From a virus (taxonomy: Duplodnaviria > Heunggongvirae > Uroviricota > Caudoviricetes), in IMG/VR virus record IMGVR_UViG_3300000358_000075: a stretch of 26,005 bases of DNA, one strand, 5' to 3'. The notes beneath the pieces are model-generated. The model was given only the letters and a program-made list of their open reading frames with translations, was not told where the DNA came from and did no database searches. Below, in pieces: positions 1 through 26,005 of this stretch. Position 1 is the stretch's first letter. Each line of letters begins with the position of its first letter. The position numbers and the translations under genes are program-made.

Positions 1-90
1 TTGCCTCCCCCCCGTTGATGGGTAAAATAGCCGCAATTTTTCGTTTTCAACAAGCGCGGCGCGATGCCGCTTACTCAAGAAGAAAGAATT

Positions 91-165
91 ATGACGTTGT
101 CTCCTTATTTGCAAGAGGTGGCGAAGCGCCGCACTTTTGCCATTATTTCTCACCCCAATAATTAA
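91..165 (+). pseudogene. prfC: Displaced 5' fragment of host prfC (peptide chain release factor RF3), truncated by prophage insertion
   Basis: ATG at 91 encodes [22 protein letters not shown], which matches the RF3 N-terminus as recalled; homology to prfC ends near 155 and the frame stops two codons later (NN*). Confidence 0.75.
145..165. other. attL junction between host prfC sequence and prophage DNA (core inferred, not precisely delimited)
   Basis: Host-like prfC coding sequence runs to about 155, followed by AT-rich non-prfC sequence and then an integrase gene. Confidence 0.5.
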
Positions 166-319
166 GCCTAAATTAAAGCTCTTTTACTTTTTCAAAGTCC
201 TTTCAGTTAATTGATGTTTGATTTTATAAGTCATTTAAATACAGTTAGTTATGTGGCTTCTTTAATTGAAAATTCTTTCATGTAACTTTAAATCGATCAG
301 GTTGCTTTCATCAAAAATC

Positions 320-377
320 TGTACATATGCTTGTACATAATGTACAAAGCAGCAGAGGTGTTTTGCGATTTGTACAA
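320..377. promoter_or_regulatory. Cluster of four TGTACA palindromic hexamers immediately upstream of int
   Basis: TGTACA at 320-325, 332-337, 341-346 and 371-376, ending just before the AGGTGAG Shine-Dalgarno of int. Confidence 0.35.
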
Positions 378-385
378 GGTGAGTA

Positions 386-1621
386 ATGGCGCTGTCTGAT
401 GCGTGGTTGCGTTCAGTCGTTGGAAAGGAACGTGATAAGGTTTTGGTTAAATCCGATCGTGATGGTCTGTCTGTCAGAGTATCACCGAAAGGTCGCGTAG
501 TGTTCCAATATCGTTATCAATGGGCAGGGAAAGGTGAGCGCCTTGATATCGGAACTTACCCGGCAACTGGATTAAAAGAGGCCAGAGAAGAAGTTATCCG
601 TCTCCGTGGTGAACTCGAGTCAAACCGCAATCCACGATTAGTCAAGCAGGCTGAAAAACGAAAAGCTACTGAAGCCATGACGGTAGAGTCTGTGATCCGT
701 GCCTGGTATGAAGCATATTGTGTAAAAAATAAAAAAGGTTCTGAACAGATACTCCGCTCGTTTGAGCTGCACCTGTTCTCTAAAATCGGGAATATCCCTC
801 ACGATGCAGCTACATTGCATGATTGGTTAGAAGTCCTGGAGCCTCTTAGCACCAAGACTCCAGCAATAGTAGACCGATTGCTAATTAACGCAAAGCAGGC
901 CCATGTCTGGGCGTATAAGAGAAAGCTCATTGAAACTCGCCCACTGTCGGATATCACGGGTAAAGATATGGATATCCGTAAAGGTCAGAAAAAACGGTTT
1001 CTGACACATGATGAAATTAACATCCTTTATGCTGCGATCGATGGTTCTCGAATGGTTCCTAAATACCGAGCCTTCATTAAACTATTGCTGCATTTTGGTT
1101 GCCGTAGTTCAGAGCTAATTACTGCTAGGGTGGATGATTTTGATTTCATAAATAAGGTATGGACTGTACCACCAGAACGACATAAGACTGGGGACATAAC
1201 AGGCGAACCGCTAAAGCGGCCCATTATTGAACCGGTTGAAGAGCTTATAAAATACGCTATCTCTATGAACAACGGTTCCGATATGCTTTTTACTAAGGAA
1301 GGAAGCAGGGAGCCAGTTGGTCGGACATCATTGCAGTCGCTGCCTTACAATTTAATGCAGTTCGCATGGCGACGTTTGGGGTATCAATTTCCTCATTGGT
1401 CTCTTCATGATTTGAGACGAACAGCACGAACAAACTTTTCTGATCTTACTGCTCCTCATATTGCTGAAATAATGCTCGGTCATAAACTGCCAGGTGTATG
1501 GCAAGTTTATGATAAGAGCGATTATCTAGAAGAACAGCGTAAAGCTTACTGGGCATGGTGGGAGAGGGTTGAATCGATCGTTACTTGTACTGACTTAATC
1601 TCCAACGGACAGTTTGCGTAG
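386..1621 (+). CDS. int: Phage integrase, tyrosine site-specific recombinase
   Basis: 411 aa ORF next to the att junction with a good SD; C-terminal catalytic region HDLRRT...GHK...VYDKSDY fits the R-H-R-Y recombinase signature. Confidence 0.9.
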   Translation: MALSDAWLRSVVGKERDKVLVKSDRDGLSVRVSPKGRVVFQYRYQWAGKGERLDIGTYPATGLKEAREEVIRLRGELESNRNPRLVKQAEKRKATEAMTVESVIRAWYEAYCVKNKKGSEQILRSFELHLFSKIGNIPHDAATLHDWLEVLEPLSTKTPAIVDRLLINAKQAHVWAYKRKLIETRPLSDITGKDMDIRKGQKKRFLTHDEINILYAAIDGSRMVPKYRAFIKLLLHFGCRSSELITARVDDFDFINKVWTVPPERHKTGDITGEPLKRPIIEPVEELIKYAISMNNGSDMLFTKEGSREPVGRTSLQSLPYNLMQFAWRRLGYQFPHWSLHDLRRTARTNFSDLTAPHIAEIMLGHKLPGVWQVYDKSDYLEEQRKAYWAWWERVESIVTCTDLISNGQFA

Positions 1622-1779
1622 CCAGAGCGTAATCATATCTGCCAGTCCGCTGCGGATACCTTGTGTACTGGGTTTTTAGCCAGACTACGTTAACCGGTAG
1701 CTTCAGTATTTGGGGGGGCGGCAGGAGTTCGATGGTTTATTGGGTTACTGTGGGACTAAGGATGTAGGGATGCCAATCA

Positions 1780-2913
1780 ATGAATTATGAAAAATATCAT
1801 AGCACAAACAGAAGCAAGGGTTTGCGAACCTTCTGCTACTTAATTTATTATGTGCAGGTGATTTTTAATGTGATGAAGTGTTTTATGACTCGCGGAAACT
1901 TTGATTTTATAAACTCTAACGTGGTTTTCTCAGAAGCCGATAAGTCATTGTGGATTGATCTCATTAACACCGATTGTATTTGGTATGATATGATAATTAA
2001 TCCTCCTGATGATATAAGAACAAATAAGATAATAAAGAACTATCTCAGAATTATGGAAAAATATACGAGGGAAAGCTGTGAAAAGAGATTTATTTATTTC
2101 TTAGGTTCAAGAAAAAAAGTAAGGTTTTCAACCAAGAAACAGCCTAGGTATAACCCATTCACAAAAAATATAGTATTCACTCTGTTGATTGGCAAAGAAG
2201 AGCGAAAGCTTCGGATAAAATATTCCTTTTGCACGTTTACGCAGAATGGGGTAGTGAAGGTAACTCCAAATGTTAGAGTAACTGAGAAGTTTCTCTACAT
2301 TGAATATGAAAATGGCAATTTATGTGTGATGTCAGTTCATGACTTCGTAAACGGACATTATATTGATTTAGGAATTCATACAGAAGTGCATTACGTAGGA
2401 TATACACGTCATCCGCATCGGCGCCCTGTTGATTTTATTCACCGTGGCTTATCAAAGATGCTGTATAGCGTTTCAAATGACGATAATGATTTTTTTGTTT
2501 GTTTTAGTATATTTAATCCAAGGATTATATCTCTGAATAATAAATGTAATGTGGTCTTTAATATTTCAAATTCTCTACTGGATGAAATTGATGTTGATAA
2601 TGAGGGGAGAATTATTGAAAACTGCTTAATACGTTACTTTGATCCTAAGCTTCAAGATGATGACAAGGAAAGTAAAAGGTCAGATTTAAATAAAATGTTT
2701 ATGGACCTGGTGGAAAATAAAAAAATTAAAAAAATATACGTTAATTTTCAATATGAAAGGAATAATGAGTATTTCTGCTTTTACTCTAAAGTTGTTCCGC
2801 CGAAATTTCATCATTTCTTTGTGTTGGATTTTTCTGATGGCAAGATAAATATTGATAGAGACCAGGATATGATGACTCAGATGGCATTGTGTATGGGGTA
2901 TTATAATTATTAA
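1780..2913 (+). CDS. AT-rich orphan protein of unknown function (moron between int and xis); start uncertain, alternative ATGs at 1873 and 1885
   Basis: Long uninterrupted ORF (377 aa), visibly far more AT-rich than flanking phage genes; Asn/Lys/Ile/Phe/Tyr-rich product with no motif I recognise; possible sigma70-like promoter TTGCGA-N17-TTATTA at 1822-1850. Confidence 0.6.
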   Translation: MNYEKYHSTNRSKGLRTFCYLIYYVQVIFNVMKCFMTRGNFDFINSNVVFSEADKSLWIDLINTDCIWYDMIINPPDDIRTNKIIKNYLRIMEKYTRESCEKRFIYFLGSRKKVRFSTKKQPRYNPFTKNIVFTLLIGKEERKLRIKYSFCTFTQNGVVKVTPNVRVTEKFLYIEYENGNLCVMSVHDFVNGHYIDLGIHTEVHYVGYTRHPHRRPVDFIHRGLSKMLYSVSNDDNDFFVCFSIFNPRIISLNNKCNVVFNISNSLLDEIDVDNEGRIIENCLIRYFDPKLQDDDKESKRSDLNKMFMDLVENKKIKKIYVNFQYERNNEYFCFYSKVVPPKFHHFFVLDFSDGKINIDRDQDMMTQMALCMGYYNY

Positions 2914-3122
2914 TATTTCGCTTGATACCAACTCAAAATCTTTTTTGTCGCATCCATTGTGGATTAATATTCAGAGGTAAGGGGTATCTGCGGAATTTAT
3001 ATTTTGCAGGATGAGCATACAATACATGATATAACATCTGTTTTTGGCACAGAGCATATAGTCAGATTATGTTTAGTTCTGTGCCATAGATGGATACTAT
3101 CTCACCTCTTGGCTAACTCTCA

Positions 3123-3317
3123 TTACTCAATAACTCCAGCAAATCTGTATATTTTGCGTGATGCCCATTTATTTGGGCAGGATTTGATATCAGGATCTGG
3201 AAAATCAGGCCTGTATTTCTGGCCAGTTCTCCTGTTTACGCTGTTCCAGCGAAGAACAGTCGATACTGAAACGCCACAGAAGTCGGCGACTTGTTTAGTT
3301 GTCATTAAGTTGTTCAT
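3123..3317 (-). CDS. AlpA/excisionase-family small DNA-binding protein (Xis-like)
   Basis: 64 aa; HTH-like N-terminus (TTKQVADFCGVSVSTVLRW); position next to int; TAATG stop/start overlap with the upstream gene. Confidence 0.6.
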   Translation of the reverse strand: MNNLMTTKQVADFCGVSVSTVLRWNSVNRRTGQKYRPDFPDPDIKSCPNKWASRKIYRFAGVIE

Positions 3318-3937
3318 TACTTCACCTCCTGCGGCGGCTCCGGTAGCGGCATCCAGTGGGTTACTTTCGATGCCGGTTCTTCCCCATCGTCAGTAACTGC
3401 CCACCATTTGTTTCTCGACCAATCGTAATACCCTTCGAAGGTATCGCACTCAGTCCAGCCGTAAGACTTACCCCAACACCAAACATACTGTTTATCGTCC
3501 GGCATTCGCTCACTACAGCTTATCCAACCATCCGGAGTTACCGGAGAGTTGCCCGACAGCTCGTTCAACTTGTAAGACTGGCTTACAGGTTCGGCACCAT
3601 GAAGCATGGCGGCGCGGCAGGCGTTCCAGCCTTCATCAAAGCCGACTATGCCATTATTTAAAGACGGACGAACATCTGGCACCATCGGCACTGGCTTGGC
3701 TATATATAGCGGCTGAACATACCAGCCCTTTGATAACCAACTGTCAGCAATGTTTTTACTCCGTGTTATTGCCGGAATACCTAAGCCATTGTCTGAATGC
3801 AGCCATGCCACCGGTTCTGCTTTCAGCGAGGCTAACGCTATTTCATAAGCTCGGTGCTCAATATTGTCTCGCACGTCCAAGCTGCCTATGCGCTCTTTGA
3901 TTTCTTTAATCAGTTCTTTGTCGGTGAAAGTGGTCAT
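3317..3937 (-). CDS. Phage protein with C-terminal DUF551-like domain
   Basis: 206 aa with AGGAGA SD; Trp/Cys-rich C-terminus (…WISCSERMPDD…THWMPLPEPP) typical of DUF551. Confidence 0.55.
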   Translation of the reverse strand: MTTFTDKELIKEIKERIGSLDVRDNIEHRAYEIALASLKAEPVAWLHSDNGLGIPAITRSKNIADSWLSKGWYVQPLYIAKPVPMVPDVRPSLNNGIVGFDEGWNACRAAMLHGAEPVSQSYKLNELSGNSPVTPDGWISCSERMPDDKQYVWCWGKSYGWTECDTFEGYYDWSRNKWWAVTDDGEEPASKVTHWMPLPEPPQEVK

Positions 3938-3938
3938 C

Positions 3939-4268
3939 TCACTCTCCTTTGATGCGAATGCCAGCGACGCGTAGTGCGTGTTCTAAGTCAATCAGGCAAA
4001 GCCAACTGCCATTTTCTTTAGGTATCATGACATGCCGCTTATTAGCATTTATTGGGTGCCCATATCGAAGGTCGTAGCGAGTCGGTAATTGAACTTCCCT
4101 CGCTTCCAGTTCTGTAATGCGTTTGTTTTTAGCTTCTAGTTCATCCAGCAGCGCCAGCACAACCTGCGGTGTGACTTTCATACGAAATGCCAGCAATTTT
4201 TGTGGTGTGGCTACTATTTTTATTGCTTCTGCCGCCTCACGCAGTACCTGATAGTCAATCTTGTTCAC
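3939..4268 (-). CDS. Hypothetical early-left phage protein
   Basis: GTG start preceded by AAGGAGG; stop overlaps the upstream gene start, indicating an operon. Confidence 0.5.
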   Translation of the reverse strand: MNKIDYQVLREAAEAIKIVATPQKLLAFRMKVTPQVVLALLDELEAKNKRITELEAREVQLPTRYDLRYGHPINANKRHVMIPKENGSWLCLIDLEHALRVAGIRIKGE

Positions 4269-4504
4269 TGGTTGCCTCCTTTACGGATCTGCGCTGCGAT
4301 GCACGAAAAAAAAGACTCTCGCGTATGACTGTTAAGAGCTGGCGCGAACGCCGCGTTAAGAACGGCAGCATCACAGCCGTCATCGATATAGAGCGCAATT
4401 TTTTTCTCCAGGCGTGCTTTGGCTTCCTGCAACTGCATACCCCGGCACGCACGCGGGATATACTCAGCAATTTGAGCGATAGATTTTTCGTTCTGTTTAA
4501 ACAT
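4265..4504 (-). CDS. Hypothetical early-left phage protein
   Basis: 79 aa with GAGGTGA SD; coupled stop/start overlaps with both neighbours. Confidence 0.5.
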   Translation of the reverse strand: MFKQNEKSIAQIAEYIPRACRGMQLQEAKARLEKKIALYIDDGCDAAVLNAAFAPALNSHTRESFFSCIAAQIRKGGNQ

Positions 4505-4700
4505 GCTTCACCTCGATAGGCTTGATGGTATCGATCAGCAGTCGGCGGCGAGTATTTTCTGCAAAGTGGCGGCGTCCGTTTTCTTTGTGGTAAAACTCGT
4601 TTTTTCCGACGACCCACATCCGCTTTGTCTGGTGCAGTTTTTTTACCTGCGGACCGTCTCGGGTGATAACAATTCCTGTATGAGTTTTTATCACGCTCAT
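4497..4700 (-). CDS. Hypothetical early-left phage protein
   Basis: 67 aa with GGAGAA SD; overlapping stop/start with neighbours. Confidence 0.45.
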   Translation of the reverse strand: MSVIKTHTGIVITRDGPQVKKLHQTKRMWVVGKNEFYHKENGRRHFAENTRRRLLIDTIKPIEVKHV

Positions 4701-5059
4701 TTCTTATTCTCCGGTGCTTTCGGCATTACTGCCCAGTGAGTGATATTGACGTTTTCAAGGTCCCCGACCTGAAATGTCCACTGCCATTCTCCGGTTTCTT
4801 TTTGTCCCCAGGTGTACCAGAGAGAACGCCAGCCAATTAGCCAGCCTTCTCCGTTAGCATCAAATAACAGAACACTTTCATTTGCTGGCGGCAGTTCAGC
4901 TGACACTGGTATTATTTTGTTTTCCAGTGCCGCACATTTAGCTTCAAGCGCATCGAATTTACGTACCAGGTACTCAGCATTTGTTTCGTTCACTTTCAGA
5001 TCTCGCGGTACACATTTCCCGCGAAGAAACCCTTCCATTTCGAAAACATTCATGCGCAT
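4697..5059 (-). CDS. Phage protein, DUF551-like C-terminus (YfdS-like position and size)
   Basis: 120 aa; C-terminal …NITHWAVMPKAPE resembles DUF551; stop overlaps the upstream HD-domain gene. Confidence 0.5.
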   Translation of the reverse strand: MRMNVFEMEGFLRGKCVPRDLKVNETNAEYLVRKFDALEAKCAALENKIIPVSAELPPANESVLLFDANGEGWLIGWRSLWYTWGQKETGEWQWTFQVGDLENVNITHWAVMPKAPENKK

Positions 5060-5586
5060 TTGCGTAACTCCGATAACTCGTTAAAACGTTCCATAAACAT
5101 CCCGTAGGCATGGCCCGGTGCCAGTGGAATCACGTTGAACATCTCTGTTGCCGGGATGCCTTCCAGTACAGGCCAGAAAGAGCCATCATCAAGCCCGAGA
5201 TCGCGGCGTTCGGTTGCCAGCATGATGAGATCGGCATATTTCACAGGCGTGCTCATAACCGGGGGTAACCCGTATTTCTCACGGATTACGGCATCTATTT
5301 TTTCTTCCATCCGTTTATAGTCAGGAAGAAGGCGTTTCAGTGGAGCGGGGATGTCCTGGCAATATGCTTCTGTTGCATCATGCATTAACGCTTCAAAAGC
5401 AAATTCCTGCGGTACCAGCTGGCTGCAAAGCACCGCATGCTGGGCGACGCTGTAGAAGTGTGAAAGATGTCCTGCAAAGCGACAGATATTTGAAAGGGAA
5501 ACTGCGATATCGTTAATCACGATGTCGTCTTTATTTATCTTGTCATAATAAAAATGCTTCCCGGAAAAAGTTTTAATAAATGACAT
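5050..5586 (-). CDS. HD-domain metal-dependent phosphohydrolase (YfdR-like 5'-deoxynucleotidase family)
   Basis: ATG at 5586 with GGAGA SD gives 178 aa; conserved His/Asp of the HD fold (…VAQHAVL…LMHDATEAY…). Confidence 0.8.
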   Translation of the reverse strand: MSFIKTFSGKHFYYDKINKDDIVINDIAVSLSNICRFAGHLSHFYSVAQHAVLCSQLVPQEFAFEALMHDATEAYCQDIPAPLKRLLPDYKRMEEKIDAVIREKYGLPPVMSTPVKYADLIMLATERRDLGLDDGSFWPVLEGIPATEMFNVIPLAPGHAYGMFMERFNELSELRKCA

Positions 5587-5714
5587 TTCGGTCTCCACTT
5601 TATATGCGCTGCACCGCGCTGAATTCTGCTAAAAGGAAGCTCTCACCATCCGGTGATTATTGAGTTAATTACGTTTCCATAAATGCCCCCGCAGGGGCAT
5701 TTGCAGTAATGAAA

Positions 5715-6539
5715 TCAGGCGGTGAAAGTACCAATAAAGGTTTCTACTTTGCTGTCTTTGAATTTCTCAACAAGCAGATCACGAAATTCGTTAGCCATTT
5801 CTTCCTGCATCGCTTCCAGCTGAATAATGCGCAGAACCAGTACAGGACGATCGCCAGTGATAATGCTGAGGCGTAATTTAAACGGACGTTCTTTCAGACC
5901 TTCAAACGGAACGCATTTAAATTCAAATGCCACTGGCATAATGTCTTTGGTCTTCGCTTCGACAGACTCCATCAGGGAGCGTTTGCCGCTGAAGTCATTA
6001 TCTTCAAAATCAGCGGTCTGGTTTGCTTCAATCGTGATTTTACGGACTGCCGCAGCCGCTTTTGTTGCCTGAATAGCGTCACCATTGGCATCAAAGCCCA
6101 CAAGGTAGTCGGCCCAGTCTTCAATCCATTCTGCCAGTGACTTCTGGGAGTTACGCTCGCCGTTAACAGACAACAGGGCAGAGAACGGTGCTGTCTTTTT
6201 CAGTTTGAGAGTGGCGGTGTTATCTGCGTGACCTGGTTCATCAATAGTACCCAGGTTAAGTACACTGACGGCACGCATATTATCAGCATCGATAAAGCAG
6301 CGGGTGCCTTCATCTGCAAGATCTTTAGAATAACGGGTAAAGTCATCGATGCTGGCAGTGGAAAGCGCACCACGGAAACGGAAGCGATTTAAATTAAATT
6401 TTTCCAGATCATGAATGCGGAAATTCTCAGGCAATGCCACAGCATCGGCACCAATATTACTGATAATTTCATTAACACCCTGAGCAGAAATAAGGGCATG
6501 GATTTGATTAATTGCGGTTGCGTCTAAGTTCTGAGACAT
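5715..6539 (-). CDS. DUF2303 / YfdQ-like phage protein
   Basis: 274 aa with GAGGA SD; same size and neighbourhood as yfdQ in CPS-53, as recalled. Confidence 0.65.
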
Positions 6540-6604
6540 AATAAGTCCTCACAATATTAAGATATTCAGTGATGAGATAAATAATCAGTTAATTAAGAAC
6601 GATA

Positions 6605-6967
6605 TTAATGACCTGCTGCGCGGAGTTTTCCGTCAGGTTCACCGGCAAGAGTCAGTAATTGTCCCTGGTCTTCCTGCAGAATAGTCAGGCGACCACCGCG
6701 ATTGACATACATCGGCGTTTCGGTGGTGTCTTCTTCGGAAATTTTCCCGCGGTTAGTCGGGCGAACATATGAGAGTTTGTGTTTGATTTTCACACGGTTC
6801 TCATCAAACGGTTCGATTTCCAGGTTGAGCGAGACCTTACCTTTGGTTTTCGTGTTCATCACACCGGAAGCGACTTCACTGAGAACTGCGCCGATTTTGG
6901 TTTCAAATACGCCGCCGTCCAGCTCCCCGATAAATGCCTGCACATCAGTACTGCGTTCGCTAGCCAT
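6605..6967 (-). CDS. Hypothetical phage protein (YfdP-like size and position)
   Basis: Internal ATG at 6967 with GAGGAG SD gives 120 aa (MASERSTDVQAFIGELDGG…); the longer track ORF extension has no SD and a low-complexity N-terminus. Confidence 0.55.
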   Translation of the reverse strand: MASERSTDVQAFIGELDGGVFETKIGAVLSEVASGVMNTKTKGKVSLNLEIEPFDENRVKIKHKLSYVRPTNRGKISEEDTTETPMYVNRGGRLTILQEDQGQLLTLAGEPDGKLRAAGH

Positions 6968-7223
6968 TTTGCTGCTCCTCATCATATCGACCCTGCAAGG
7001 TCGGTTGGTTTCTCCACAAAACAGAGAAGAACACCTGCGGTGGCAGCCGCCCGGGTGGATTGGGTTATGAGCCCGTCGTCCGGTGATGCTCTTCTCTGTT
7101 TTGTAAAAAGAGCGGTACCAGCCGGAAGCAAGTGTACAAACTGGTACCGCCAAAGCAGTGGCTGTTGTGGTGGGGTTGTCACTCAGGCGTATGGTCAACC
7201 TGACAATCCGGTGTCCTCAACGG

Positions 7224-7299
7224 NNNNNNNNNNNNNNNNNNNNNNNNNNNNNNNNNNNNNNNNNNNNNNNNNNNNNNNNNNNNNNNNNNNNNNNNNNNN
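7224..7299. other. Assembly gap (76 N)
   Basis: Run of N in the sequence. Confidence 1.
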
Positions 7300-7697
7300 A
7301 ACCCAGCCATACTTACCGCCGCGCCATTTCGCGGATTACCACAACGCTGAGAGCACTTAGCCAGTTATGGCACCACACTTTGTCGCGGCTCCATAAATGC
7401 CCTCATCGTTGCACCCTGGTCTCTTCCCAGGCGTCAAACCGAACCGCCACGCTGGTTAGGCGTCTTATCAGCATCCTCATTGACTTGCACATTCCGGCTA
7501 CCTGGTTTGTTTGCCCGAGCAAGGAGTGGATTGTCCCCTTTAACGTCCCCAGACCGCTAACGACGCATGTGCCATACGCCGTGTTACAACCAAATTTTGT
7601 TAGTACCTTGTTTGTAGGTCTGGAAAGAAAGATAAAATGAAGTTGCACATTATGCAAGTGTTTTATTGCGAGATATGCAATTTGGTGGGTAATGAAA

Positions 7698-7715
7698 AGC
7701 CACCTTCTGGTGGCT
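7698..7715 (-). terminator. Putative intrinsic terminator downstream of the repressor gene
   Basis: GC-rich hairpin AGCCACC-TTCT-GGTGGCT about 20 nt past the repressor stop, followed on the minus strand by TTTTCATT. Confidence 0.4.
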
Positions 7716-7736
7716 AATTGATGTTGAGGTAGGGGG

Positions 7737-8429
7737 TTAATTGTGTCGCTTAAGGGTCTGTGACTGACTGATTAAGACCTTTCCAAAGACCATAAACCGG
7801 TGTTCGTTTTCGCTGGTAATTCCCCATTCGCGGTAAATCTGATTATCAGAAATTACCAGCAGTTTATCAGGTATCATTTGCAGTCGTTTGACGTAAATTT
7901 TATCATCAAAACCAAATACATATATACCATCCCCATCAAACTGATTGATACTGATATCAACGAAGATGAGATCTCCTGGCTCAATGGTTGGACACATACT
8001 GTCCCCACGAACGTTGATAACTTTAATGTGATTTGCTGGTCGTCCACCAAACATCGATACAGCATTATCAGTTCTGTATTCAATGGCATGAATCACATCA
8101 ATGACATCACCGCCCTGGATAAGGCCATTTCCCGCACTGGCACTGACATCCAGCATTTCAATACGGAATACATCCTTCACCTGCGCAACATCCTCACTAA
8201 CACTGTTTTTACATACAGTATTACTTTTGAAGTCTGAGGTAAAGAGATCAGCAATATCAACACCTAAGCTCCTGGCAATATTACTCAGGGCTTGTTCAGT
8301 GAATTGTTTCTGCTTACCTGTTTCCAGGCGTGAGATATTCGCCGCATCCACTCCTATTGCTTCAGCGAGATCGGCGATTTTCATGTTCTTCGCCTGGCGA
8401 AGTTGTCTGACTCGATTTCCTATGTTCAT
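7737..8429 (-). CDS. CI-like prophage repressor (HTH plus S24 LexA-like autopeptidase domain)
   Basis: 230 aa; N-terminal HTH (…MKIADLAEAIGVDAANISRLETGK…) and C-terminal GDSMCPT…VKRL serine/lysine dyad region; divergent from a Cro-like gene. Confidence 0.9.
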   Translation of the reverse strand: MNIGNRVRQLRQAKNMKIADLAEAIGVDAANISRLETGKQKQFTEQALSNIARSLGVDIADLFTSDFKSNTVCKNSVSEDVAQVKDVFRIEMLDVSASAGNGLIQGGDVIDVIHAIEYRTDNAVSMFGGRPANHIKVINVRGDSMCPTIEPGDLIFVDISINQFDGDGIYVFGFDDKIYVKRLQMIPDKLLVISDNQIYREWGITSENEHRFMVFGKVLISQSQTLKRHN

Positions 8430-8526
8430 GCGTTTATTACATTTCTTTATTGCGCGTTAAGCAAATCAACTTGCGCAAAATATTTGCGTGAAATAATATG
8501 CTCATCACGCAATATGTGGAGGTCAT
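8430..8526. promoter_or_regulatory. Immunity-region divergent promoter/operator between cI-like and cro-like genes
   Basis: 97 bp intergenic with repeated TTGCG(C/T) half-sites in both orientations (TTGCGCG, TTGCGCAAAATATTTGCGTG, CACGCAA); GGAGG SD before cro; no SD before the repressor ATG. Confidence 0.6.
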
Positions 8527-8787
8527 ATGCAATCACCATTACGGAATGTGCGTAAGGCGCACGGATTTACTTTGCAGCATGTTGCTGCGGGCGTTCAGGT
8601 CAATCCAGCGACGCTGAGTCGTATTGAAAGACTGGAACAAATTCCATCTATCGATCTTGCAGAACGTCTGGCCAATTTTTTTAAGGGTGAAATCAGCGAA
8701 ATGCAGATTCTTTATCCGGCACGTTTTCAATCTAGCCAAAACCAGAATGGGTTTAAACCACAGGAACAGGAGGTAAGCCGTGGGTAA
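8527..8787 (+). CDS. Cro-like HTH transcriptional regulator
   Basis: 86 aa; HTH (…FTLQHVAAGVQVNPATLSRIER…); first gene of the rightward operon opposite the repressor. Confidence 0.75.
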   Translation: MQSPLRNVRKAHGFTLQHVAAGVQVNPATLSRIERLEQIPSIDLAERLANFFKGEISEMQILYPARFQSSQNQNGFKPQEQEVSRG

Positions 8788-17116: not shown

Positions 17117-17332
17117 ATGTCAAATAAAATGACTGGTTTAGTAAAATGGTTTAACGCTGATAAAGGTTTTGGCTTTATTTCTCCTGTTGATGGTAGTAAA
17201 GATGTGTTTGTGCATTTTTCTGCGATTCAGAATGATAATTATCGAACCTTATTTGAAGGTCAAAAGGTTACCTTCTCTGTAGAGAGTGGTGCTAAAGGTC
17301 CTGCAGCAGCAAATGTCATAATTACTGATTAA
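17117..17332 (+). CDS. cspB: Cold-shock protein, CspB-like
   Basis: 71 aa [53 protein letters not shown]…, with RNP1/RNP2 motifs; long leader typical of csp genes. Confidence 0.85.
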
Positions 17333-17613
17333 AATTCATAGTTTGTCTGTATACGATAACGAAGAAGGCTGATGCCTGAGTGGAGATACAGACAGAGTGG
17401 TGAATATTGGATCTCTTTAATAAATAGTAAGGAGGTCCAATACATGAAACAATGGCCAGCATATTTGGCAATAACTTAATCAGGAAAAGTATGCTAACCA
17501 TTGTGGTGAAGTGCAGGTTTGCTGCATGAATAGTTTTACAGCAGAAGCTAACTGCTGGCATAGCAAAACAAAGTGCGTAAGTGGATGACTCCCACAAAAA
17601 GTACCACAATATT

Positions 17614-17637
17614 AAACCCGCTCAGGCGGGTTTTTTA
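17614..17637. terminator. Bidirectional-looking intrinsic terminator
   Basis: AAACCCGC-TCAG-GCGGGTTTTTT hairpin flanked by an A-tract upstream and a T-tract downstream. Confidence 0.5.
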
Positions 17638-17695
17638 TTATCTGCTTTAAATATGTTATTAAAATATAAAAAATACTTGTTACGAATAAAATCAA

Positions 17696-17866
17696 TCAAG
17701 CTACAGCTTTAAGATTTGTCTGGAATACTTTGTTGCAATGAGGGCAGATCAAAAGGGCACCTTTTTGTATTCTTGAAAAACTGTGTTCTGACTCTTGGGT
17801 GCAGTTTGGGCAGGAACATTTAACGAGATAATTACGGCGTGATTTTGAGTCTTTACGTTCTGACAT
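17696..17866 (-). CDS. Small zinc-ribbon protein (two CxxC pairs; YnfU-like)
   Basis: 56 aa from ATG 17866 with AGGAAAA SD: MSERKDSKSRRNYLVKCSCPNCTQ…LICPHCNK…. Confidence 0.5.
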   Translation of the reverse strand: MSERKDSKSRRNYLVKCSCPNCTQESEHSFSRIQKGALLICPHCNKVFQTNLKAVA

Positions 17867-18084
17867 AGGCTTTTCCTGTATAAATGGCCGTATACAGTAC
17901 ACTAAATATGAAAACATATCTCGTATTATTATTTAATATATGATTTTCTTTTAAAATAATTACCCACATTTTTAATGTGTCTGTTTTTTAGCGCCGTTGA
18001 GAACAACGTTTGCTATAAAAACTACCCCATAGACTCCGATCTTTTCAAACATATTGCACCATCTGTGTACATCGGGGTGAGGAT

Positions 18085-18300
18085 ATGAAATCAATGGATA
18101 AGTTAACAACAGGTATCGCCTATGGCACATCGGCTGGTAATGCTGGTTTCTGGGCATTGCAGTTACTCGATAAAGTAACTCCGTCACAGTGGGCTGCAAT
18201 CGGTGTGCTGGGTAGTCTGGTATTTGGCTTGCTGACGTACCTGACAAACCTTTATTTCAAGATTAAAGAAGACAAGCGTAAGGTTGCACGGGGAGAGTAA
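18085..18300 (+). CDS. Class II holin / pinholin (phage 21 S-like) with dual start motif
   Basis: 71 aa; MKSMDK dual-start N-terminus and two TM segments (…[18 protein letters not shown]…[23 protein letters not shown]…); GGGGTGAGGA SD. Confidence 0.8.
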
Positions 18301-18304
18301 TTCA

Positions 18305-18649
18305 ATGACACAAAACTATGAACTGATTGTGAAAGGGATCCGCAATTTTGAGAATAAAGTTGCGGTAACTGTAGCATTAAGGGACAAAAAACGCTTTGAC
18401 GGTGAAATTTTTGACCTGGACATCTCGCTGGACCGTGTTGAAGGTGCCGCGCTGGAGTTTTATGAGGCAGCAGCCAGAAGGAGCATCAGACAGGTCTTCC
18501 TGGAAGTTGCAGCCGGGTTATGTGAAGGGGATGAGCAGTCGCCGGAAAAGCGCCCCGTAATTTTAGAGGCGCAGAATGTGTGGATAACCTACAAAGGAAA
18601 GCTACCAGGAAGAATTACTGATTCTCTGAAGACTCCACCGAAATGGTAA
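18305..18649 (+). CDS. Hypothetical protein between holin and endolysin (YdfR-like position)
   Basis: 114 aa from ATG 18305 with GGGGAGAG SD directly after the holin stop. Confidence 0.5.
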   Translation: MTQNYELIVKGIRNFENKVAVTVALRDKKRFDGEIFDLDISLDRVEGAALEFYEAAARRSIRQVFLEVAAGLCEGDEQSPEKRPVILEAQNVWITYKGKLPGRITDSLKTPPKW

Positions 18650-18887
18650 TTTTACCAGCATATTTTTCTTCCAGTAATGCCGCCAGCCACTTGAAAGAAT
18701 TTTGTTGTTCCTGGGACCATTTGGGGTTGCGTGATTCAAGCAGGAGCGATGCCAGTGTTGGTTGCATTTGTTCTCTGGGAATTGATAAGGCCAAATATGA
18801 AAATGCAACAGTGAGGGCATTTACATCATCCCGAAGCTTTGAAATGCAGTCGAGCAACTCCTGTAGAGAAATGGTGTTATTGTCCAT
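18615..18887 (-). CDS. Hypothetical small protein encoded antisense within the lysis cassette
   Basis: 90 aa with strong AAGAGGA SD; 3' end overlaps the 3' end of the 18305..18649 gene by about 35 nt. Confidence 0.45.
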   Translation of the reverse strand: MDNNTISLQELLDCISKLRDDVNALTVAFSYLALSIPREQMQPTLASLLLESRNPKWSQEQQNSFKWLAALLEEKYAGKITISVESSENQ

Positions 18888-18992
18888 AAATAATCCTCTT
18901 GATTGTCTTTACCTTTTCCCCGCCTGATTCAACAGGCCGGGACAGATAAACATATCCAGGGTTCAGAAACCGATAAATCCTGATAAATATCC

Positions 18993-20014
<1,022 letters not shown>

Positions 20015-20382
20015 ATGTAGATTAACATTAAATCGGATTATTTTTAGCGCTGAATGTGAAATTTAAATAAAAAGGACTCTTCCATGAGTCAAAATCCTTG
20101 AAATCTTAAGGGTAAGATAAAAGGTCATTAGACAGAATGATACGTTTTATTAATAAATAAAGCTATTGTTTCATTCGTGTGTTTTTCTTTACAAAAGTAA
20201 TCCTTGCTATGGTTGGTTAATCATGCGTTAATGGTGTTCTGGTTTGTTACAAAATTATCTGAAGCAGTCATTGTTATAATTTTATTATTTGTACCTCTTG
20301 AGATTTCCTTGTTGGTTTTTCTCTCTGATATTTTTTTCGGACCATTCTGCCCAAGGGCTAACTTCTTCAAAAGGTAATAATG

Positions 20383-20595
20383 ATGTCTAACAAAATGACT
20401 GGTTTAGTGAAATGGTTTAACCCTGAAAAAGGTTTTGGTTTCATCACGCCGAAAGATGGTAGCAAAGATGTGTTTGTCCATTTCTCAGCTATTCAGAGCA
20501 ACGATTTCAAAACGTTAACTGAGAATCAGCAAGTCGAATTTGGTATTGAGAACGGACCTAAAGGCCCCGCGGCTGTTCATGTAGTGGCACTTTGA
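20383..20595 (+). CDS. cspI: Cold-shock protein, CspI-like
   Basis: 70 aa [76 protein letters not shown]. Confidence 0.85.
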
Positions 20596-20800
20596 GGTAG
20601 AAAATATTACAAACCATATTCACTTTAGATGCCCGTGTTGCCATGGTTCTCAGTATAGAACATCATCTTTTGATGTTTCTGACAGGAATCCTTTCGGGGC
20701 AAAATGTATCTTTTGTAAATCAATGATGATTACATTTGATAATATTTCACAATACTTAAATGTTAGCCGTCTGTCGTTAGATTTAAGAAAGTGAAAATGA

Positions 20801-20822
20801 AGGCTCCTTCGGGAGCTTTTTT
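20801..20822 (+). terminator. Intrinsic terminator downstream of the cspI-like gene
   Basis: GGCTCC-TTCG-GGAGC hairpin followed by TTTTTT. Confidence 0.55.
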
Positions 20823-20866
20823 GCTTAGTGTCTAGTCGATGGATACTCACATATTATGGTAACATC

Positions 20867-21097
20867 ATGAAAAAAATAATAGTTTTTTTTAACTCTGAAC
20901 CAGCAATGGTAGTGCCAGTGATGACCGGAGTTAACACCATCATGCGTGAATATCCAAATGGCGAAACAACACATCTCACTGTAATGGCTGCAGGGTTTCC
21001 ATCTCTGACCGGAGATCATAAAGTCATTTATGTAGCAGCGGATCGACATGTAACTTCAGAAGAAATTCTGGAAGCAGCAATGAGACTCTTGAATTGA
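20867..21097 (+). CDS. Hypothetical small protein; start ambiguous (alternative GTG at 20828)
   Basis: 76-89 aa ORF between the cspI-like and gnsB-like genes; weak SD. Confidence 0.35.
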   Translation: MKKIIVFFNSEPAMVVPVMTGVNTIMREYPNGETTHLTVMAAGFPSLTGDHKVIYVAADRHVTSEEILEAAMRLLN

Positions 21098-21269
21098 TTT
21101 CATTCTAATGCCTTGATAATAAAGGATAATCATCTTTATCTGTTTGTGCGAAATTTAGACTGTCGTATGTTGATTATTGCGATGTTTCATCTTATCTTTT
21201 ATACGTTTGCTCCATATAATTGACACTACTGTGTACCAGGAAAGTCATAACAGACTAAAAGAGGAAATG

Positions 21270-21443
21270 ATGAACATTGAAGAGTTAAAAACAAAAACAG
21301 AAGCAGATATTTCTGAATATATAACAAAAAAAATTATTGAGCTTAAGAAAAAGACCGGGAAAGAAGTTACCAGTATCCAGTTTACTGCACGGGAAAAAAT
21401 GACTGGTCTTGAAAGCTATGATATCAAGATTGATTTAATCTAG
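21270..21443 (+). CDS. gnsB: GnsA/GnsB-family protein
   Basis: 57 aa MNIEELKTKTEADISEYITKKIIELKKKTGKEVTSIQFTAREKMTGLESYDIKIDLI, close to GnsB as recalled; GAGGA SD. Confidence 0.7.
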   Translation: MNIEELKTKTEADISEYITKKIIELKKKTGKEVTSIQFTAREKMTGLESYDIKIDLI

Positions 21444-21738
21444 TGTGTTTATAGTATTAGCATCAATTTCTTATCAGATGCTATTCAACAATACAATTTA
21501 CCCATAAACCTCGTTTTTACGGGGTTTTGTTATATTTAAACATTACCGAATAGATATAAATCTCGATAGTCGGTGGTATTGGTTGTGTGACAATACCTAG
21601 TCTTTCCGGTATGCCTGGAGAGAATACAAACGACAGATTATGTAAGGGAAACGCGCTGAAACTTTCACACTTTCATGCTGAGTGATTTGACGTTATATTT
21701 TTAGCCGCAAGTGAAGAACAAACGCATGGAGCGACAAA

Positions 21739-21945
21739 ATGCATAAAGATCAATACACTGATGACTCATCCTTGGATCAGGTCCGTGTAAAAACTATGCT
21801 CACTAGCACCATTTCTATGAGTTATCCGGATGTTGTAATTGCATGTATAGAACATCAAGTGTCTCTGGAAGCATTCAGGGCAATTGAGGCAGCGTTGGTG
21901 AAGCACGATAAGAATTCGAAGGATTATTCCCTGGTGGTTGACTGA
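21739..21945 (+). CDS. Hypothetical small protein in the lambda-like right-end region
   Basis: 68 aa; GGAG SD 8 nt upstream. Confidence 0.45.
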
Positions 21946-22198
21946 TCGCCATAACTGCTAACCATTCAAACTATTTCACCTGTGACAGAGTCAATATCGC
22001 ATTCTGTCACTGTCAGGCTAATACAGAACTACAATTCAACTACTGCAATGCCTCGTAATTAGGTGAAGTTACAATATCGTCCTGTTCGGATGCCAACTGC
22101 ATTTCTGAAGATAAGGCGTTTATGACTCACATATTTGTCCCACACGTTCGCCAGTCCTGTGCGGGGTGGGAGGGGAGGTAAAGAAACCGGGATATTCA

Positions 22199-22390
22199 TT
22201 ATTCATCACTTTTGATTGATGTAGATGCTCTCTTTTCTGACGTTAGTCTCCGACGGCAGGCTTCAATGACCCAGGCTGAGAAATTCCCGGACCCTTTTTG
22301 ATCAAGAGCGATGTTAATTTGTTCAATCATTTGGTTAGGAAAGCGGATGTTGCGGGTTGTTGTTCTGCGGGTTCTGTTCTTCGTTGACAT
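22199..22390 (-). CDS. Small basic protein (DUF3950/YlcI-like), just left of cos
   Basis: Internal ATG at 22390 gives 63 aa (MSTKNRTRRTTTRNIRFPNQMIEQINIALDQKGSGNFSAWVIEACRRRL…); weak SD. Confidence 0.4.
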   Translation of the reverse strand: MSTKNRTRRTTTRNIRFPNQMIEQINIALDQKGSGNFSAWVIEACRRRLTSEKRASTSIKSDE

Positions 22391-22579
22391 GAGGTTGTCC
22401 CGTATTCTGTGTCGCTGATTTGTATTGTCTGAAGTTGTTTTTACGTTAAGTTGATGCGGATCAATTAATACGATACCTGCGTCATAATTGATTATTTGAC
22501 GTGGTTTGATGGCGTACACGCACGTTGTGATATGTAGATGATAATTATTATCATTTTGTGGGTCCTTTCCGGCGATCCG

Positions 22580-22591
22580 ACAGGTTACGGG
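22580..22591. other. cosN cohesive-end site, lambda type
   Basis: …CCGACAGGTTACG|GGGCGGCGACCT|CGCGGGTTTTCGCTATTTATGAAAATTTTCCGG… matches the joined lambda right and left ends as recalled; Nu1 starts about 200 bp downstream. Confidence 0.8.
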
Positions 22592-22778
22592 GCGGCGACC
22601 TCGCGGGTTTTCGCTATTTATGAAAATTTTCCGGTTTAAGGCGTTTCCGTTCTTCTTCGCCGTAACTTAATGTTTTTATTTAAAACACCCCCTGAAAAGA
22701 AAGGAAACGACAGGTGCTGAAAACGGGCTTTTTGGCCTCTGTCGTTTCCTTTCTCTGTTTTTGTCCGGGGAATGAACA
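22592..22778. promoter_or_regulatory. cosB region (terminase small-subunit and IHF binding elements) between cosN and Nu1
   Basis: Position relative to cosN and Nu1; sequence near-identical to lambda as recalled. Confidence 0.6.
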
Positions 22779-23298
22779 ATGGAAGTCAACAAAAAGCAGC
22801 TGGCTGATATTTTCGGTGCGAGTATCCGTACCATTCAGAACTGGCAGGAGCAGGGAATGCCCGTTCTGCGAGGCGGTGGCAAGGGTAATGAGGTGCTTTA
22901 TGACTCTGCCGCCGTCATAAAATGGTATGCCGAAAGGGATGCTGAAATTGAGAGCGAAAAGCTGCGCCGGGAGGTTGAAGAACTGCGGCTGGCCAGCGAG
23001 GCAGATCTTCACCCCGGAACACTTGAATTTGAGCGCCATCGCCTGACTCGTGCTCAGGCGACGGCGCAGGAACTGAAAAATGCCAAAGAATCGGCTGAAG
23101 TGGTGGAAACCGCATTCTGTACTTTCGTGCTGTCGCGTATAGCAAGGGAAATATCCAGTATTCTCGACGGTATTCCTCTGTCGGTGCAGCGACGTTTTCC
23201 TGAGCTGGATAACCGGCATATTGATTTCCTGAAACGGGATATCATCAAAGCCATGAACAAAGCAGCCGCGCTGGATGAACTGATACCGGGGTTGCTGA

Positions 23299-23324
<26 letters not shown>
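22779..23324 (+). CDS. nu1: Terminase small subunit (lambda Nu1)
   Basis: 181 aa MEVNKKQLADIFGASIRTIQNWQEQGMPVLRGGGKGNEVLYDSAAVIKWYAERDAEIE…, near-identical to lambda gpNu1 as recalled. Confidence 0.95.

Positions 23325-26005
<2,681 letters not shown>

Follow-up and report, generated by a model that had tools for sequence, protein, structure and literature searches.

A lambdoid prophage at Escherichia coli prfC displaces the native gene start and brings a substitute 5' end

A prophage lying inside the 5' coding region of a conserved gene raises the question of what becomes of that gene. The DNA considered here, 26,005 nucleotides of a Caudoviricetes record (IMGVR_UViG_3300000358_000075) and referred to below as the window, opens with such a junction. 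An earlier note, made from the sequence alone, had placed a prophage within the start of prfC and proposed that the phage supplies a replacement 5' end. In the reading favoured here, to which a probability of about 0.9 is given, a lambdoid prophage of the cdtI / Stx1a / Stx2c-at-prfC type has its attL at the window start, with a displaced stub at this end and a rebuilt, probably functional prfC at the other. The features recognised in the window are collected in Table 1.

Table 1. Features of the window and the basis of their assignment
Feature	Position	Strand	Basis
Host yjjG-prfC intergenic region with native prfC upstream signals	1..90	+	100% identity to host locus
Native prfC 5' stub displaced to attL: 22 codons from the host (91-156), 2 phage codons AAT AAT, TAA	91..165	+	Translation
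att core ATTATTTCTCACCC, 14 bp, codons I-I-S-H-P at start of RF3 P-loop AIISHPDAGKT	142..155	+	Same in attL, attR and attB (three-way comparison)
Phage P' arm, 30% G+C, putative arm-type integrase sites TGTACA at 320, 332, 341, 371	156..385	+	Last 15 nt before int ATG
Tyrosine integrase (Int), 411 aa, transcribed away from core	386..1621	+	Pfam Arm-DNA-bind_3 + Phage_int_M + Phage_integrase
Left ~24 kb of lambdoid prophage, continuing past window	1622..26005		Annotation of 99.9%-identical JNE25-003 prophage; Pfam
ORF directly after int	1780-2913	+	phrog_7779, function unassigned; start annotated in relatives at ~1885
CI-like repressor	7737-8429	-	

The host side of the junction was read by megablast: of 5426 complete E. 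coli genomes searched with window 1-400, 5425 matched. Window 1-155 was 100% identical to the prfC locus in thousands of these genomes, taking in the yjjG-prfC intergenic region and the prfC start, and where the insertion is absent this match ended exactly at position 155, indicating that the prophage does lie inside the prfC 5' coding region. The alignment to an uninterrupted prfC that had been suggested for the window start thus succeeded over 1-155 and defined the core. K-12-type DNA has the identical 155 bases and then continues ..CACCCGGACGCCGGTAAG..; after ..TCTCACCC it runs on as GGACGCCGGTAAGACT (D-A-G-K-T), whereas the window runs on as CAATAATTAAGCC, base 156 being C in the window against G in the host and the DNA from there on belonging to the phage. 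The frame at window 91-165 reads ATG ACG TTG TCT CCT TAT TTG CAA GAG GTG GCG AAG CGC CGC ACT TTT GCC ATT ATT TCT CAC CCC AAT AAT TAA, the codons AAT AAT and the stop occupying 157-165. An RF3 start at 91-155 closed by two phage codons and a stop had been described before and is confirmed, with the small correction that codon 22 ends at 156, not at 155. With homologous host sequence up to 155 and phage sequence beyond, the fragment is the displaced native 5' end at attL, as the earlier note held.

The same junction was found in two genomes that served as close relatives, JNE25-003 (locus L003; 99.9% identical over 25 kb of the window and differing at the four window N runs) and MS8345 (sharing the first 5.3 kb and mosaic beyond), in both of which PGAP annotates the stub as a partial CDS without a C-terminus. 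The window begins one base past the yjjG stop (yjjG ends at position 2988 of the MS8345 locus, L001, and the window starts at 2989), and a promoter-like site, TTGCCT-16-TAAAAT, lies at window 1-28 with 9/12 matching positions, a consensus match only.

This junction is common in E. coli. The same attL, with at least 80% of the 400-base query covered, was present in 701 complete genomes, and among the matches listed with attL the identity was 97-100% across all 400 bases. These matches were annotated as 'hypothetical protein' and 'tyrosine-type recombinase/integrase', while most of the others were annotated as prfC and covered 1-155 only. A matching attR was found in 692 complete genomes and an intact native prfC site in 4717 of the 5425; the three counts add up, leaving almost no other occupant at the site, and about 13% of complete E. 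coli genomes have an element of this type at prfC. The 14-bp core occurs once in the window (0 expected by chance), and in the closest relative, JNE25-003, core identity reaches 20 bp (TTTGCCATTATTTCTCACCC, window 136-155). In the Stx2c phage record LC727876, as in other deposited records of Stx2c and Stx1a prfC phages, the 14-bp core carries the annotation 'duplication due to insertion'. A 17-bp core consensus, ATcATcTCtCACCCtGA, has been published for SXT/R391 elements (PMC9058013) and covers the 14-bp phage core, which aligns with the cores of the Proteus mirabilis H63 and R997 integrative and conjugative elements (ICEs) as well as with this consensus.

Neither a second core copy nor an attR was found inside the 26-kb window, the prophage running past the window end, and the rebuilt prfC was therefore read from the two close relatives, the 99.9% identical one and the mosaic one. 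The prophage measures ~48 kb in JNE25-003, where it is lambdoid and has both att sites, and ~40.5 kb in MS8345. At its far end, both genomes show a minus-strand DinI-like gene, a 219-bp spacer and then a CDS annotated as prfC, whose product is the same 528-aa protein (WP_000202563.1, annotated RF3). The attR sequence is ..aatcaaagagacaacaatt ATG ACA AGC CTT TTG GCC GCA GAG GTA GCG AAA AGA AGA ACC TTT GC(A/C) ATT ATT TCT CAC CCG GAC GCC GGT AAG.., in which a purine-rich tract resembling a ribosome-binding site (RBS), the ATG and 16-17 recoded codons come from the phage and are joined in frame to the host prfC through ATTATTTCTCACCC. The hybrid RF3 matches the RF3 equivalog model TIGR00503 over residues 6-528 with 1089.6 bits (cut-off 467), and differs from the native 529-aa RF3 in its first 8 residues only. 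The replacement 5' end that had been predicted for the other prophage end is thereby borne out as a reconstituted, in-frame, full-length prfC at the attR of MS8345 and JNE25-003. Unlike gene-disrupting insertions of the wrbA or mlrA type, this one does not leave the target ORF truncated, and the element's new in-frame 5' coding end is seen both at these two attR sites and in the attP of free phages. This structural account, with the prophage in prfC and the gene rebuilt in frame at the far end, we hold to be highly probable.

A predicted attP of 614 bp, assembled from the phage halves of attR and attL, is contiguous in free phages: 2H10 (97.2% identity, 100% coverage), cdtI (96.1%, 100% coverage) and Ayreon (86% coverage). 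The substitute start is present there as a small ORF 220 bp upstream of int. In cdtI itself this 23-codon RF3-like ORF has no annotation. A CDS annotated across the cdtI attP, orf31 (L085 1618-1821), was considered as the substitute start and rejected, since its frame is not that of the RF3-like start, within which it ends; the annotation is probably an artefact. Each arm of the 474-bp attP holds four copies of the hexamer TGTACA, eight in total where 0.17 would be expected, and the other 25.6 kb of the window have only two more. Copies at conserved distances from the core are also present in the P' arms of 14 of 16 related loci from other genera, and R997, an SXT/R391 ICE, has the hexamer in both arms. 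From this position and conservation, we infer that the repeats are putative arm-type binding sites of this integrase clade.

The integrase itself is 98% identical to that of phage cdtI and aligns with the R997 integrase over its full length at 38% identity (E 1e-89). The cdtI integrase and IntSXT have been grouped in one 'SXT cluster' of tyrosine recombinases, all members of which insert at prfC (Smyshlyaev et al. 2021, PMC8138268), and these identities together with the domains place the window integrase in that cluster. As judged from the att sites, Int would have joined the attP core of the phage to its identical 14-20 bp counterpart in prfC, in codons 17/18-22, which encode the start of the GTP-binding P-loop. 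Integration has carried the promoter region, RBS and first 22 codons of native prfC over to attL, and what remains there is a dead-end ORF of 24 codons immediately before int; excision would restore the native prfC.

Relatives of this integrase with 45-97% identity were found in E. coli, Pantoea, Serratia, Pseudomonas, Marinobacterium, Methylomonas, Methylibium, Halomonas, Variovorax, Microbulbifer and others; a prfC stub ending in ..AIISHP precedes each of them by 200-235 bp. This shared stub end implies that Gamma- and Betaproteobacteria alike have the crossover fixed at the bases encoding the P-loop. The loci from other genera, taken from the genome_contigs collection, give the int-side junctions, and outside the E. 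coli phages the substitute start was read for ICE R997 only. Among relatives at 40-49% identity from Xenorhabdus, Photorhabdus, Morganella, Acinetobacter and Shewanella (loci L014, L017-L028 and L030-L043), no prfC stub was found within 1.2 kb upstream and no prfC within 6 kb, so that this sister group presumably uses another attachment site. A search of viral_contigs for divergent attP sites with an integrase alignment returned only near-identical E. coli proviruses, many of them cut at int.

Among phages, the nearest described counterpart is cdtI (Asakura et al. 2007; NC_009514), which, along with the CC119 Stx1a and Stx2c phages, is located at prfC. Over 614 bp, substitute start included, its attP shows 96% identity. 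The cdtI phage and the Stx1a and Stx2c prfC phages (Ogura et al. 2007; Nakamura et al. 2023, LC7278xx) have the same 14-bp duplication and lambdoid genome plan, and the Stx1 phage in prfC was described as changing RF3 over a short stretch at its N-terminus (Ogura et al. 2007, PMC2323221). The window differs from these phages in its cargo and in much of its early and late regions, which are mosaic; it holds no cdt or stx genes and has a different ORF (phrog_7779) after int. The lambdoid gene order and the contiguous attP-int module, seen in the 99.9% relative and in 2H10, cdtI and Ayreon, fit the cdtI / Stx1a / Stx2c-at-prfC type.

[quoted passage not shown] In R997, the arm opposite int carries its own substitute prfC start, as the phage does, and ends ..ATG GCA AAC CAA GAT TTT CTT AAT GAA ATC AAT AAG CGA AGG ACC TTT GCT ATC ATC; in the P. 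mirabilis H63 ICE, the native stub is left beside int, as in the phage, and ends +AAQPFNA*. In contrast to the phage, SXT/R391 is a conjugative element and its core is 3 bp longer, extending to ..CCTGA. In R997, int points toward the core with a convergent xis between them, whereas int here points away from the core with no xis between. An SXT/R391 ICE proper is taken to have a conjugative backbone (tra genes, setCD/setR) and an integrase nearly identical to IntSXT; the window and its relatives instead encode a lambdoid phage, with repressor, Q, lysis, terminase, head and tail genes, and their integrase is only 38% identical to that of R997. Elements specific for dusA (Farrugia et al. 2015; IMEVchUSA3, PMC8409611) have another target gene and are of another type. 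Two PLSDB entries filed as plasmids are in fact something else: NZ_KY433363.1 (L168/L170) is the SXT/R391 ICE R997 cut at the att core, with six core bases duplicated on circularisation, and NZ_OL790811.1 (L169) is a 4.08-Mb P. mirabilis chromosome. The arrangement is already known from the cdtI/Stx phages and the SXT/R391 elements, and the element in the window is a further instance of the cdtI-type phage group, having its integration module in common with the SXT/R391 ICEs without being one of them.

Beyond int, the prophage follows the order cargo ORF, early-left operon (minus strand), CI-like repressor, cro/replication/Q region, lysis genes and terminase. For the ORF that follows int, searches of Pfam, NCBIfam and PADLOC gave no match, phrog_7779 being its only assignment. 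The gene in this position differs in cdtI and Ayreon, where longer CDSs (2133 and 2190 nt) stand, and in an O103:H2 relative a Dsr1 defence sirtuin is annotated somewhere within the matched prophage region; the slot after int may be a cargo or defence site. In the MS8345 prophage, a tRNA-Ile gene and two tRNA-Arg genes lie downstream of Q (L001 18143-18392). The late region at ~16600-21950 (homologous to L003 16914-21897) contains Qin-like small host-type genes, annotated in the 99.9% relative as cspF, cspB, cspI, ymcF, ynfN, gnsB and ynfU. The window has four N runs, at 7224-7299, 11546-11628, 23667-23676 and 24356-24365 (76, 83, 10 and 10 bases). The flanks of the last two overlap the same reference bases in the closest genome (~129 and 255 nt), which identifies the window as a scaffolded draft in which contig ends were joined without merging overlaps.

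Integration that leaves the target gene intact is familiar from e14 and phage 21 in icd and from tRNA genes, where the element carries a copy of the displaced gene part. Those elements replace the 3' end, whereas the prfC phage replaces the 5' end. Replacing a 3' end needs no promoter or start codon; with a 5' end, the expression signals must also come from the element. Several sequence features bear on whether the rebuilt gene is expressed. Over codons 9-17, the phage and host copies differ at 8 of 27 bases, all of them synonymous (GTA/GTG, AAA/AAG, AGA/CGC twice, ACC/ACT, GCA/GCC), and none of 1,000,000 random placements of 8 substitutions kept the peptide. Such purely synonymous recoding argues that the substitute start is translated, although the pattern could in part be a legacy of a host gene that once donated the segment. 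The R997 ICE has a third nucleotide version of the same 11-residue RF3 peptide. Most of the synonymous changes in the substitute start go toward A, fitting the AT-rich arm, and two consecutive rare AGA Arg codons stand where the host has CGC CGC (L001 43632-43637).

The signals for transcription are less conspicuous. In a consensus scan, the P-arm stretch shared by all three free phages yielded no sigma-70-like promoter on the prfC strand. The sole plus-strand promoter-like match, TCTACA-16-TATTAT (9/12), falls in a dinI/LexA-box segment that is absent from Ayreon, and Ayreon keeps the substitute start despite lacking this segment. The match overlaps the first of two tandem LexA-box-like sites, CTGT-N8-ACAG, between the DinI-like gene and the phage-borne prfC start (L001 43394-43413 and 43421-43440; L003 ~48445-48491). 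By eye, the -10-like hexamers CATAAT and TACAAT were seen inside TGTACA sites, without a good -35. At the same prfC site, SXT is reported to have been shown experimentally to supply a working promoter for the hybrid prfC. By analogy, the hybrid gene in these lysogens would be transcribed from a promoter in the phage arm, and on its sequence features it is probably both expressed and functional.

An opposing view is that the insertion inactivates prfC, the in-frame phage start being present but not transcribed or translated, so that lysogens live without RF3. This would agree with the listing of prfC among genes 'disrupted' by prophages (Bobay et al. 2013, PMC3603311), with the scan of the conserved P arm, and with Ogura et al. 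(2007, PMC2323221), who pointed out that an Stx1 phage inserted here takes away the authentic RBS and promoter, and who explicitly left open whether the hybrid is expressed. In the same work, prfC is absent from the list of essential genes, so a silent hybrid would be tolerated. Against inactivation, the phage arm has kept a start codon, a purine-rich tract, the frame and RF3 residues 9-22 despite eight base changes, and the same features have been kept again in an ICE system whose integrase is only 38% related. In the genomes inspected, PGAP moreover annotates the hybrid as an intact prfC, and the working promoter reported for SXT serves the very same site. Inactivation is accordingly judged unlikely. 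It is still less likely, and indeed very improbable, that the stub belongs to a decayed remnant or island unable to excise, with attL, attR and the substitute start as fossils. Many E. coli prophages are defective, and the window shows one end only, with scaffold gaps; but the lambdoid genome of the closest relative is complete at ~48 kb and has both att sites, attP-int modules nearly identical to this one are present in cdtI, 2H10 and Ayreon, which were sequenced as free or circular genomes, and int is an intact ORF here. As for the junction being an assembly or scaffolding chimera, which the four N runs of a scaffolded draft might bring to mind, the nearest N run is 7 kb away and the identical junction stands in 701 complete genomes and in Stx phage records with the same 14-bp duplication; its presence in complete genomes refutes this idea, the chance of which is negligible.

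A different proposal accepts the rebuilt gene and holds that integration swaps control regions rather than merely preserving prfC. The host prfC promoter and stub ORF would then read toward int, a consensus scan of window 1-450 having found no terminator-like site between stub and int. RF3 in turn would depend on a phage arm whose sole promoter-like elements overlap TGTACA sites and which, in most members, abuts two LexA boxes shared with the divergent dinI-like gene. If this were true, a housekeeping promoter would drive int in the lysogen, and in about 13% of E. coli the amount of RF3 would be governed by the SOS state or by occupancy of the arm by phage Int. We regard this proposal as quite unlikely.

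The preferred reading, a displaced stub at attL and a rebuilt prfC at attR, leaves current understanding unchanged. For annotation, it means that the 24-codon stub is a by-product and not a pseudogene of a lost prfC, and that these lysogens should not be counted among those with a 'disrupted' prfC; as regards the reading frame at least, the listing in PMC3603311 scores the gene wrongly. By their sequence, about one in eight complete E. coli genomes would encode an RF3 ORF with a phage-encoded N-terminus. The locus is a clean example of a rare strategy: the 5' end of a conserved gene is hit where its bases are most conserved, in the P-loop, by a mobile element that brings a substitute start with it, so that the gene is not lost to the host.
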